From assembly GCA_964501095.1 (NCBI GenBank), contig CAZCRQ010000001.1, forward strand, positions 1 to 30,664: 30,664 nt of DNA, in the 5' to 3' direction. The notes beneath the pieces are model-generated. The model was not told the origin of the DNA, ran no database searches, and saw nothing but the letters and a program-made list of their open reading frames with translations. The translations under genes were made by a program, and so were the position numbers. Below, one piece after another: positions 19,434-23,648 of the stretch. Numbering within the stretch: the first letter of the stretch is position 1; each line of letters starts with the position of its first letter. The stretch comes from an uncultured bacterium (lineage in GTDB: Bacteria > Electryoneota > Electryoneia > Electryoneales > Electryoneaceae).

Positions 19434-19964
19434 ATGTTTGCCTCTATTCTTAATATCTGTTTTATGCAAATGAATAATTACATCCGATTGCCAAAACCTA
19501 AACCGATAGAACTTATTGGTCTGGTAATCTGGATTTTATTTCTCTTAGGTCTTTTTTATCTGGGAACAAAGAAAAAAGATAAAGTCATAGTATTTGCTGA
19601 GAAATTGAGCAAAAAGATGAAACGCCGCGGGCACCTGCGCGTTTCCCTGGAGATGGAGGCAAAACTGGTGAACTTGGAGGATCAACTCAGCTATCCAATC
19701 AAGATCCTTGATTTATCCACGGGGGGATTAAAAGTTGAAGGGCTGAGCTATCCACTTTTACAAGTGGAAAAATTTAAAATACTTTCCCCGGAGTCGCCCT
19801 GGAATAGATTGAATTTTCCTCGAATATATGTAAAACGGGCGAGATACAACCAGCGAAAGAAAACTGTCATCCTCAATTGCAAATTTCATAAACTGACCGA
19901 TGAACAACGTCGAATCCTAGCAGAAGAAGTGCAAACTCGCATCAAAGAATTTTATAATCGTTGA
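19434..19964 (+). CDS. Membrane-anchored PilZ-domain protein (c-di-GMP receptor candidate)
   Basis: One N-terminal TM helix; intact RxxxR (RGHLR) and DxSxxG (DLSTGG) motifs. Start codon uncertain. Confidence 0.8.
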   Translation: MFASILNICFMQMNNYIRLPKPKPIELIGLVIWILFLLGLFYLGTKKKDKVIVFAEKLSKKMKRRGHLRVSLEMEAKLVNLEDQLSYPIKILDLSTGGLKVEGLSYPLLQVEKFKILSPESPWNRLNFPRIYVKRARYNQRKKTVILNCKFHKLTDEQRRILAEEVQTRIKEFYNR

Positions 19965-21507: not shown

Positions 21508-21801
21508 TTACGCATAAGTATCGATATTCTTCCCTAACTCTTCTCGTACTCTACTTTTCTCCGCAGGAATTATTTTGCCAATTTCACCCTTTCGCACCAT
21601 CCCTCCCATTTTCTGAATCTGCCCATAGAGAGCATGTCCCGTGGAGACAAATAGGTTGGTGATTGGCGGCGTGGGAGGCGAGGAATTCTCGGTGTAGCTG
21701 TCAGAAACATCCATTGCCTTCTGAGAGGGAGCATTATCACGCTGCGCTTGTACCGGCTGCGAGGGGAGAACCGATGGAATTGGGATGACGCTATGGGGCA
21801 T
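21508..21801 (-). CDS. Small hypothetical protein with C-terminal GxxIDxxA motif (YjfB-like, sigma28-regulon type)
   Basis: 97 aa, Pro/Ser-rich N-terminal half, ends LGKNIDTYA; directly preceded by a sigma28-type promoter. Confidence 0.7.
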   Translation of the reverse strand: MPHSVIPIPSVLPSQPVQAQRDNAPSQKAMDVSDSYTENSSPPTPPITNLFVSTGHALYGQIQKMGGMVRKGEIGKIIPAEKSRVREELGKNIDTYA

Positions 21802-21834
21802 TGAATCGCTCTGTTGGAGCCATATCCTAATCTA

Positions 21835-21861
21835 TCATCGGCTGTTTTACAGAATCCTTGA
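21835..21861 (-). promoter_or_regulatory. sigma28 (FliA)-type promoter
   Basis: Minus strand TCAA-N15-GCCGATGA, 34 bp upstream of the ATG at 21801. Confidence 0.75.
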
Positions 21862-22082
21862 ATGACAACTCGAATAATTCGGAGGTATTTTCGGACTGCT
21901 TGATCGGAGACGGTTATAATCGAGACTTTAGGTGAGACTGCTACAAAATTGACAGTTATCCAACTGACGGAAAATCAAGATGATGCGATTGAATTGTGGA
22001 GAATAGCTGCTACGAAAAAGTGCCATTATGGGCTGTTCGGTTGGAGTCAACTTAGAGGCGAGAAAGTCCACTAATCATTAAA

Positions 22083-22095
22083 AATCAATGTATTA
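22083..22095 (+). promoter_or_regulatory. IHF consensus site
   Basis: AATCAA-TGTA-TTA matches WATCAANNNNTTR, 30 bp upstream of the sigma54 -24 element. Confidence 0.6.
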
Positions 22096-22124
22096 CCTTG
22101 TTATAGTGAGTAATCCTCCCGGAA

Positions 22125-22140
22125 TGGCATGGTCATTGCT
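22125..22140 (+). promoter_or_regulatory. sigma54 (RpoN) -24/-12 promoter
   Basis: TGGCATG-GTCA-TTGCT matches TGGCAYG-N4-TTGCW with exact spacing. Confidence 0.75.
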
Positions 22141-22175
22141 GATCGATTAAATCAGCGATTCCAGTCCTAATCATA

Positions 22176-22202
22176 TTATCGGCAGTTCTCGGATATTCTT
22201 TA
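22176..22202 (-). promoter_or_regulatory. sigma28 (FliA) promoter, perfect consensus
   Basis: Minus strand TAAA-N15-GCCGATAA (TAAAG at the -35). Confidence 0.8.
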
Positions 22203-22279
22203 GTTTCTCTGGGAGATATGAATCCCGAATTCGATACGTAAAACTCCGCACCCTCTTCAACCTTGAAGAACCCTTGCCC

Positions 22280-22334
22280 AGCTCAGCAATGATTTCGATG
22301 GCAGTTGAAAGCCATTGCTGAGCTATTTTATTAT
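22280..22334 (+). terminator. Strong hairpin with T-rich tail (possible intrinsic terminator)
   Basis: AGCTCAGCAATG (22280-22291) and CATTGCTGAGCT (22313-22324) form a perfect 12-bp stem with a partly paired interior, followed by ATTTTATTAT. Confidence 0.5.
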
Positions 22335-22359
22335 CTGACCTGGAGGTTTATGATACCTT

Positions 22360-22464
22360 GGGTAGCGTAGGCGTCTCTGCCTGCGAGGGGGATCGCAAAC
22401 AATGATCGCAAGCACGGAGGCTTACGCTACCCCTGTATTTCGCAAGCACGGAGGCTTACGCGAC
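22360..22464. repeat. GTAG-type REP doublet plus a third copy
   Basis: GTAG-CGTAGGC-GTCTCT-GCCTGCG at 22362-22385. Inverted GTAG-CGTAAGC-CTCCGT-GCTTGCG at 22430-22407, repeated at 22464-22441 with a GTCG foot. Confidence 0.75.
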
Positions 22465-22511
22465 CATTTTTGAAAAAGGGGGATCATTTACATCAACCCC
22501 AGATTGCAATA

Positions 22512-22598: not shown

Positions 22599-23648
22599 AT
22601 GCCTTTGGAACCGATGACCCTCGAGATCATTAGAGGTCTCCCTAAAACTGATCTTCATTGCCATCTGGATGGATCGATACGAATATCGACTCTCATTGAG
22701 TTGGCAAAAAAGCGCAAAGTGGAATTACCCACAACCGATGAAGAACAACTTAAACTGATTCTGCAAGCGGGACCTCAAGTAAAGAATCTGAAGGATTATT
22801 TAAGAGCGTTTGATATAACTTTATCCGTGATGCAGGATGATGAAGACATCTTCCGTGTTGCGAGAGAACTTTGTGAAGATGCCTGGGATGATGGAGTCTG
22901 GTACTTGGAGGTTCGCTTCTCCCCCATCCTGCACCAACAAAAAGGTCTAACCCTTACTCGAGTGATGGAAGCAGTTCTCTCAGGATTACGCGAAGGAGAA
23001 GACAAAACAGGCATTCATGCCAGGGTGATAGTCTGCGGCATCCGACAGATTGAACCCTCTGTATCAGTAAAACTCGCCGAAGTGGCTGCCGCTTTTAAAG
23101 AGCAAGGGGTGGTGGGATTCGATCTAGCGGGAAACGAGGATCATTATCCGGCAAAGGATCATGCGGCAGCCTTTTATCTGATCCGCAGCAACAACATCCC
23201 GTGCACAGTGCACGCCGGAGAAGCCTGGGGACCGGGATCGATCAAGCAAGCCCTTCATGATTTGAACGCTCATCGTATCGGACACGGCACCCGTCTTAAG
23301 GAGGATGGCGGATTATTGAATTATGTCAACAACCATCGTATCCCTTTGGAATGCTGCATCTCCTCCAACATCCATGTCGGCACTATCAAATCTATCGAAG
23401 AGCACCCGATAAAATTCTACTACGATTTCGGCTTGCGGGTGACGGTCAACACAGATAACCGTCTGATGAGCGCGACCAGTGTAAGTAATGAACTATTCCT
23501 AGCGCATAAAAAGTTGAATTTTGACCGTTCGGCGATTGAAGATGTCATAATCATGGGATTCAAATCGGCATTCCTTCCCTACCAGGAGCGGAAACATCTA
23601 TTGAAGAAGGCGCTTACAGCGATGGGGCGTGTACATGTACCATTTTAA
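22599..23648 (+). CDS. add: Adenosine deaminase
   Basis: DLHCHLDGS, YLEVRFSP, GFDLAG, HAGEA, RIGHG and NTDN metal-binding motifs. Confidence 0.93.
   Translation: MPLEPMTLEIIRGLPKTDLHCHLDGSIRISTLIELAKKRKVELPTTDEEQLKLILQAGPQVKNLKDYLRAFDITLSVMQDDEDIFRVARELCEDAWDDGVWYLEVRFSPILHQQKGLTLTRVMEAVLSGLREGEDKTGIHARVIVCGIRQIEPSVSVKLAEVAAAFKEQGVVGFDLAGNEDHYPAKDHAAAFYLIRSNNIPCTVHAGEAWGPGSIKQALHDLNAHRIGHGTRLKEDGGLLNYVNNHRIPLECCISSNIHVGTIKSIEEHPIKFYYDFGLRVTVNTDNRLMSATSVSNELFLAHKKLNFDRSAIEDVIIMGFKSAFLPYQERKHLLKKALTAMGRVHVPF

Follow-up and report, generated by a model that had tools for sequence, protein, structure and literature searches.

The stretch of DNA analysed here (the window; 30,664 nucleotides) is contig 1 of a freshwater metagenome-assembled genome (MAG) that comprises 3.1 Mb in 447 contigs and is 87% complete. 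Within it, a non-coding stretch of ~800 bp separates a small minus-strand ORF from the gene encoding adenosine deaminase (Add; 22599-23648, assigned with Pfam), and in this stretch a sigma54 promoter and a sigma28 promoter stand face to face (Table 1). An earlier sequence-only reading had described the two facing elements, the sigma28 site as a perfect consensus, and the motif check finds both in place; the start sites it gave are likewise reproduced, as predictions from the usual promoter spacings, and lie ~19 bp apart. In the sigma54 element, GG (-24, 22126-27) and GC (-12, 22138-39) are separated by exactly the 10 nt expected within TGGCAC-N5-TTGCW. The sigma28 site, called distal here to tell it from a proximal one nearer the small gene, reads TAAA (22202-22199), N15 and GCCGATAA (22183-22176) on the minus strand and fits TAAA(GTTT)-N11/15-GCCGATAA at its fixed spacing. 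Its predicted transcript crosses the -12 and -24 boxes and the upstream enhancer, heading towards the small gene. A scan of the whole window against Rfam matched no family.

Table 1 Features of the control region and related sites elsewhere in the genome (G000); positions are those of the window unless a contig is named
Feature	Position	Strand	Remarks
Gene for 97-aa predicted disordered protein	21508..21801	-	Only gene downstream of both sigma28 promoters
Proximal sigma28 promoter, TCAAGGAT-N11-GCCGATGA	21835..21861	-	~34 nt upstream of small-gene ATG
Upstream activator (enhancer) site, CTGCTACGAAAAAGTGCC, imperfect dyad	22007-22024		~115 bp upstream of -24 element
IHF-consensus match, AATCAATGTATTA	22083-22095	+	Between enhancer and -24 element; weak part
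Sigma54 -24/-12 promoter, TGGCAT-GGTCA-TTGCT	22125-22140	+	Motif match; predicted start ~22151
Predicted transcript 5' overlap, ~19 nt	22151-22169		Computed from motif positions and usual spacings
Distal sigma28 promoter, TAAAGAAT-N11-GCCGATAA	22202-22176	-	Motif match; predicted start ~22169
Seven-codon ORF behind GGGAGA Shine-Dalgarno-like motif	22218..22241	+	Position of the STAS-A start in relatives
Long hairpin (12 + 7 bp) then ATTTTATTAT, probable intrinsic terminator	22280..22335	+	Ends predicted ~185-nt sigma54-driven RNA
Two REP-like repeat units	22357..22465		Right-hand module edge, outside the proposed switch
STAS-B	G000 C150:270-650	-	Taken with 15 other class-B loci (L042-L063)
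Flagellar-operon sigma54 promoter	G000 C15:15797-15812	-	Near-consensus motif
Flagellar-operon sigma54 promoter	G000 C4:12093-12108	+	Near-consensus motif
Flagellar-operon sigma54 promoter	G000 C4:26339-26354	+	Near-consensus motif

The reading had made its case depend on the genome's having both fliA and rpoN. Both genes are present, their products matching FliA_WhiG (258.8 bits) and Sigma54_DBD (177.9 bits), respectively, and the genome also encodes at least 14 sigma54 activators (Sigma54_activat proteins). Two flagellin genes (on C40 and C137) carry TAAAGTAT-N11-ACCGATAT and TAAAGTTT-N12-TCCGATAA, that is, the same TAAAGT-N..-CCGATA motif as the distal sigma28 site, which is as good a version of it as theirs or better. 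Near-consensus sigma54 sites lie immediately 5' of rod, hook and export operons, which suggests that a middle class of flagellar genes depends on sigma54 in this lineage; with sigma54 before the rod and hook operons and sigma28 before the flagellins, a sigma54-to-sigma28 flagellar hierarchy becomes plausible. In the hierarchies of Vibrio, Pseudomonas and Campylobacter, which likewise combine sigma54 (rod/hook) with sigma28 (flagellin) promoters, the two sigma factors act at separate promoters and in succession.

Loose sigma54-like 16-mers are enriched between genes (20 of 67, against an intergenic share of ~12% of the genome), and beyond the flagellar clusters intergenic matches precede genes for HSP20, Yip1, GT2 and T9SS-tail proteins. 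Intergenic sigma28-like matches elsewhere likewise precede non-flagellar genes (MerR, sulfotransferase, OPT transporter and others), and thus neither help nor harm the case for the promoter pair. Very good sigma28 promoters (TAAAGTTT-N11-xCCGATA) are found at C78:5325-5350 and C150:3131-3156 (+), with genes for a MerR-family regulator and a sulfotransferase behind them, and the sigma28 regulon may extend past the flagellar genes here. The strict sigma28 pattern itself occurs twice in 6.2 Mb (both strands of the genome); the second copy, on C25, lies antisense inside a gene and was judged to be a chance match.

The small gene to the left has orthologues in 10 of the 16 family genomes, with two recognisable motifs in the encoded protein (W-x-T-A-x-G-x-x-L-Y-x-x-V-Q and, C-terminally, G-R/K-x-I/V-D-x-Y/W-A). 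A profile search of 1.84 billion representatives returned 19 matches, three of them spurious long proteins (fn3 and repeat proteins); a word-based search found nothing, and there was no match to Pfam at E values up to 10. The FlgM profile does not match the small protein, YjfB_motility (PF14070) has no match in the genome, and 14 of 16 genomes have a separate, weakly FlgM-like gene amid their flagellar genes. The ESM Atlas did not identify the small protein, and its model there has a pLDDT of 0.34, consistent with the predicted disorder. Every one of the 10 genomes with the gene has a proximal sigma28-like promoter ~35 nt 5' of the start codon; the distal sigma28 promoter follows 340-470 bp further upstream. 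No terminator separates the distal promoter from the gene, and the fold of the minus-strand leader is unremarkable (z = +0.98). What the reading had called a late (sigma28) RNA is most likely the long-leader mRNA of a small gene that also has its own proximal sigma28 promoter.

To look for the facing pair elsewhere, we searched 79 genomes of the phylum with a strict composite pattern (a sigma54 element and, after 28-44 nt, TTATCGGC). It matched in three further genomes of this family, with one chance-like hit besides, and the reversed control pattern gave no match among the same 79 genomes. The chance-like hit, in G029, is without a -35 element, falls in a coding-looking region and was set aside. 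In each of the three family genomes an ORF for a STAS-domain protein begins some 90-115 nt downstream of the -24 element, and a second search was seeded with that protein, so that the motif itself was not selected on. The STAS family was present in 15/15 other family genomes and in 0/63 other genomes of the phylum, and consists of two paralogues: class A (STAS-A), a separate, fast-evolving clade (97/97 support), and class B (STAS-B), which evolves more slowly, is present in 16/16 family genomes and has a sigma54 promoter of the form xGGCAY-N5-TTGC with a short leader. Taking both classes together, 24 of 25 loci have a sigma54 promoter upstream.

STAS-A is always divergent from the orthologue of the 97-aa ORF, with 90-125 nt between the -24 element and its ATG; roughly half of the family's genera no longer have it. 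The relatives' STAS-A proteins and the STAS-B protein of this genome match Pfam STAS and STAS_2, as expected of the STAS fold. The position of the phosphorylatable serine (F-L-H-x) is occupied by S, A, H or Y across the family and is not conserved, and no kinase or phosphatase gene is found among the syntenic neighbours (PilZ, DeoA, Add) in the Pfam-annotated contigs. Gene adjacency is the one hint that STAS-A may be connected with sigma28 or with the small protein.

The two classes differ sharply in what faces their sigma54 promoters. Both the sigma54 and the antisense sigma28 promoter are present at class-A loci in 8/8 genomes (seven genera); an antisense sigma28 site is absent from all 16 class-B genome loci, and from all 18 when two further class-B loci on metagenome contigs are included. 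A metagenome scan with STAS yielded three loci, and on metagenome contigs L108, L120 and L121 both facing promoters are present; at a further metagenome locus (L119) the distal -10 reads ACCGAAAG. In all 11 STAS-A loci examined the distal sigma28 promoter lies antisense inside the STAS-A leader. Across nine genomes its -35 (T-[A/C]-A-A-G) and -10 (CCGATA) are invariant, with a spacer that is 11-12 nt long and variable in sequence. Invariant hexamers around a free spacer are the signature of a promoter, rather than of an RNA or a protein-binding element.

The geometry of the pair is also conserved. The reading had proposed a search of related genomes for the same convergent motifs and spacing, and the arrangement is indeed present in 13 loci; the predicted starts overlap by 14-36 nt and the overlap is positive in every one of the nine genomes measured, with 18 nt in a metagenome locus, L117. 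This is so in a region of 400-530 bp that has diverged beyond alignment outside the promoter elements; DNA similarity to the intergenic region in 40 relatives amounted to REP-like units only. Considering 14 loci, both promoters are present in 13 and both are absent in one (G007), regardless of whether STAS-A coding sequence is there. In G007, the small gene with its proximal promoter alone sits beside add, and STAS-A, the sigma54 promoter and the distal sigma28 promoter have all gone. On this comparison the facing pair behaves as a unit that is gained, kept or lost together, as would be expected if interaction between the promoters matters. At least 10 lineages of genus rank share the arrangement; the compared genomes are all MAGs from one uncultured family and, being related, do not count as independent samples.

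Upstream of the sigma54 promoter the reading had pointed to two enhancer repeats and an IHF site. One of the repeats, the dyad listed in Table 1, has stood up: a conserved activator site ~100-150 bp upstream in orthologous loci is a mark of sigma54 promoters, and the dyad (consensus GTGCTACGAAAAGGTGcC; a perfect palindrome in G008) is present, in either orientation, at 8/8 class-A genome loci as well as in this window, with variants in L119 and L120. The other repeat, at 21938, is not conserved. The dyad has a single intergenic copy in this genome and is found at no class-B locus; class-B promoters have a different inverted repeat, with TGCCG/CGGCA-type repeats upstream at many loci. The IHF site is a perfect consensus match in the window and is not conserved (2 of 13 loci have a strict match), although the spacer between enhancer and promoter is mildly AT-rich in all 13. 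An enhancer that is unique and unlike that of STAS-B points to a private activator, and this weakens the idea, put forward in the reading, that the promoter belongs to an early flagellar tier. Whilst a flagellar hierarchy of sigma54 and sigma28 tiers is credible in this genome, the promoter studied here, unlike those of the known hierarchies, probably answers a dedicated activator and its signal instead.

In this genome the sigma54 promoter has no STAS-A gene to drive. A tblastn search with STAS-A proteins found the class-B copy on C150 only, and no remnant of STAS-A is detectable in any frame in 22200-22360, where a seven-codon ORF now stands. Logan contigs from two runs of different studies pass unbroken over 22050-22333 and 22094-22334, so the absence of STAS-A is not a misassembly; the second (run X3) is a strain variant with four substitutions that retains TGGCAT-N5-TTGC. 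The segment from the predicted start to the end of the terminator hairpin (22151-22336) folds at -45.9 kcal/mol (z = -2.4). Beyond the hairpin come the REP-like repeats and then add. The repeats belong to a family of ~70-nt units (core TCGCAAGCACGGAGGCTTACGC) with ~18 further copies in the genome; in the source metagenomes their word depth is raised several-hundred-fold and short-read contigs break there.

A second locus of this kind, L117, has the same synteny and likewise no STAS-A, its sigma54 promoter facing TTAAGTTT-N11-GCCGATAA. It is as far from this genome as any other genus (73% identity in Add, 55% in DeoA), and in the equivalent place it has a predicted RNA of ~190 nt that ends in a strong intrinsic terminator, stronger than the one here (the region lies on the reverse complement, about 290-500 nt beyond the start of the small gene). 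The two RNAs share short colinear words and are otherwise only weakly similar. We regard 22151-22336 (+) as a candidate sigma54-dependent small RNA that would derive from the leader of a lost STAS gene. The early (sigma54) RNA of the reading would thus be non-coding here and in L117 only; in the relatives it is the mRNA of a STAS-domain protein.

Taken together, these results make it very likely, in our view, that both promoters are genuine and that their arrangement is under selection. The conservation of the facing arrangement in 13 related loci points further, to a built-in switch that works by mutual interference, and we put the probability that interference is the selected function of the pair at about 0.45. 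The locus governs a divergent pair of genes restricted to the family, with the sigma28-dependent small gene on the left and on the right a sigma54 promoter that, served by its dedicated enhancer-binding activator, would drive STAS-A (in relatives) or a terminated RNA of ~185 nt (here). The open-complex footprints of the two promoters are predicted to overlap at ~22149-22174, so that both could not be productively occupied together. A sigma54 holoenzyme waits in its closed complex for the activator, which makes it a classic 'sitting duck' for a sigma28 polymerase coming the other way. With sigma28 active, polymerase from the distal promoter would pass the sigma54 closed complex, itself slow to fire, and then traverse the enhancer; sitting-duck interference and occlusion would shut off sigma54 output, and a long-leader mRNA of the small gene would be added. 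The logic for STAS-A or the RNA would be 'activator signal AND NOT sigma28 activity'.

Convergent promoters are known to interfere with one another (PMC5001618, PMC5423467), to a degree that depends on the relative strengths of the two. In E. coli, sigma54 closed complexes let an elongating polymerase pass (PMC4591121), which makes read-through from the distal sigma28 promoter into the small gene plausible. In the opposite direction, sigma54 transcription could occlude the distal sigma28 promoter, the small gene being buffered by its proximal one. For this reason any exclusion is probably asymmetric, and the symmetric mutual-exclusion toggle put forward in the reading is the less likely form. 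A more ambitious version, in which the locus is a self-contained switch, built solely from two alternative-sigma promoters, that gives output only with the dedicated activator on and sigma28 off and that has been kept after its cargo was lost, is conceivable and on the whole doubtful. Were it true, the persistence of the switch without coding cargo would mean that the small protein, itself linked to motility, is regulated by the RNA or by transcription as such.

The same observations can be read in other ways. Both promoters may be real and without cross-talk: the distal sigma28 site would simply give the small gene an additional, upstream promoter, its place opposite the sigma54 promoter following from the compactness of a divergent control region. 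On this account the result would come to little beyond a helpful annotation of such a region. Promoters in tandem are frequent, a proximal sigma28 promoter already serves the small gene, this gene is the sole one downstream of the distal promoter with no terminator intervening, and the two sigma28 sites in the window share the start-region word GATTAGGA. We nevertheless think this unlikely, since the distal site never occurs without the sigma54 promoter (in G007 the two have gone together and the proximal promoter has stayed), its start always remains 14-36 bp from the sigma54 start in a region otherwise beyond alignment, and two lineages devoid of STAS-A have kept it along with the sigma54 promoter. 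Control at the level of RNA, either through pairing of the 5' ends over their 14-36 nt, as in RNA-IN/RNA-OUT of IS10, or through a trans-acting small RNA of ~185 nt, seems to us a shade less probable again. It would suit a sigma54 transcript that is predicted to be non-coding and terminator-ended both here and in L117, with short colinear words in common; it sits poorly with an overlap segment whose sequence is not conserved outside the promoter elements, with the lack of an Rfam match and the weak similarity of the two RNAs, and with a sigma54 transcript that is an mRNA in most lineages.

A bleaker possibility is that the site in this genome is an inactive, decaying relic of the deletion of STAS-A, a gene that about half of the family's genera have lost, and the REP-like elements at the edge of the region are in keeping with this. 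The enhancer, the -24/-12 and -35/-10 elements and the terminator are, however, intact and close to consensus, the strain variant from another study has the same structure, and L117, distant at genus level, is STAS-less with its promoters intact; where decay is complete, as in G007, both promoters have vanished. We consider a relic quite improbable. Chance co-occurrence of two consensus motifs might be entertained for the window by itself, given that sigma54-like 16-mers of this site's stringency are expected ~12 times by chance in the genome and 18 are seen, but it is refuted by the conservation in 13 loci, the empty reversed-pattern control and the strict tie to one paralogue clade. Interference between the facing promoters remains the reading that we prefer.

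Opposed promoters over a short distance are also found in coliphage 186 (pR/pL), IS10 (pIN/pOUT) and Enterococcus pCF10 (prgQ/prgX), where a polymerase sitting at one promoter, or travelling from it, reduces transcription from the opposite one. The 5' overlap of ~35 nt between the IS10 RNAs resembles the 14-36 nt predicted here. Those systems depend on the housekeeping sigma factor and on repressors, whereas two different alternative sigma factors oppose one another at the present locus, and the stable sigma54 closed complex, with its need for an enhancer-bound ATPase, would offer an unusually exposed target. The general mechanism of face-to-face interference is set out in PMC5001618, PMC5423467 and PMC4519249. 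Full-text literature searches returned no description of opposed sigma54 and sigma28 promoters.

Two further comparisons concern motility. In the excludon of Listeria monocytogenes, as outlined in a review (PMC7154746), a long 5' UTR of mogR is set against flagellar genes. The likeness lies in the divergent pair, the long leader from a distal alternative-sigma promoter running antisense to the neighbour and the link to motility; according to the same review, the mogR leader both encodes a protein and represses its neighbour. An excludon has a leader antisense to the neighbour's coding region or operon; the leader predicted here covers only the neighbour's promoter and enhancer and the opening 14-36 nt of its transcript. 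With the overlap outside the coding region of the neighbour, any effect would fall on initiation and would not be exerted through a long RNA duplex. The second comparison is with Pseudomonas HsbA, a STAS-only anti-sigma antagonist that binds FlgM in the control of sigma28 (PMC8256260, PMC6482189); like it, the product of the relatives' sigma54 side is a single-domain STAS protein. Unlike in partner-switching STAS proteins, the phospho-serine is not conserved in STAS-A or STAS-B, and a link of STAS-A to sigma28 is conjecture.

Sigma54 promoters are usually seen as isolated and tightly off until an activator fires, and their closed complex is the most stable one known. If the interference reading is true, a sigma28 polymerase aimed at that complex would provide a natural test of sitting-duck interference, and two sigma regulons would be wired into a NOT gate without a repressor. 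For this uncultured lineage the work further yields a protein of the sigma28 regulon and two sigma54-driven STAS paralogues, all restricted to the family, as well as a candidate small RNA dependent on sigma54.

Two minor observations concern the surroundings of the small gene. The word GATTAGGA noted above lies 2-3 nt after each of the two sigma28 promoters (21825-21832 and 22165-22172, minus strand) and likewise after the distal one in G002; it may be a conserved element of the transcript 5' end, for example a GGA site of the CsrA type. Further to the left, at 19434-19964 (+), the window encodes a 176-aa protein with a weak match to PilZ, and the gene order PHP, PilZ-like, DeoA and small sigma28 gene recurs in the distant relatives L117, L119 and L120, making a link between c-di-GMP and the motility-associated small gene possible.
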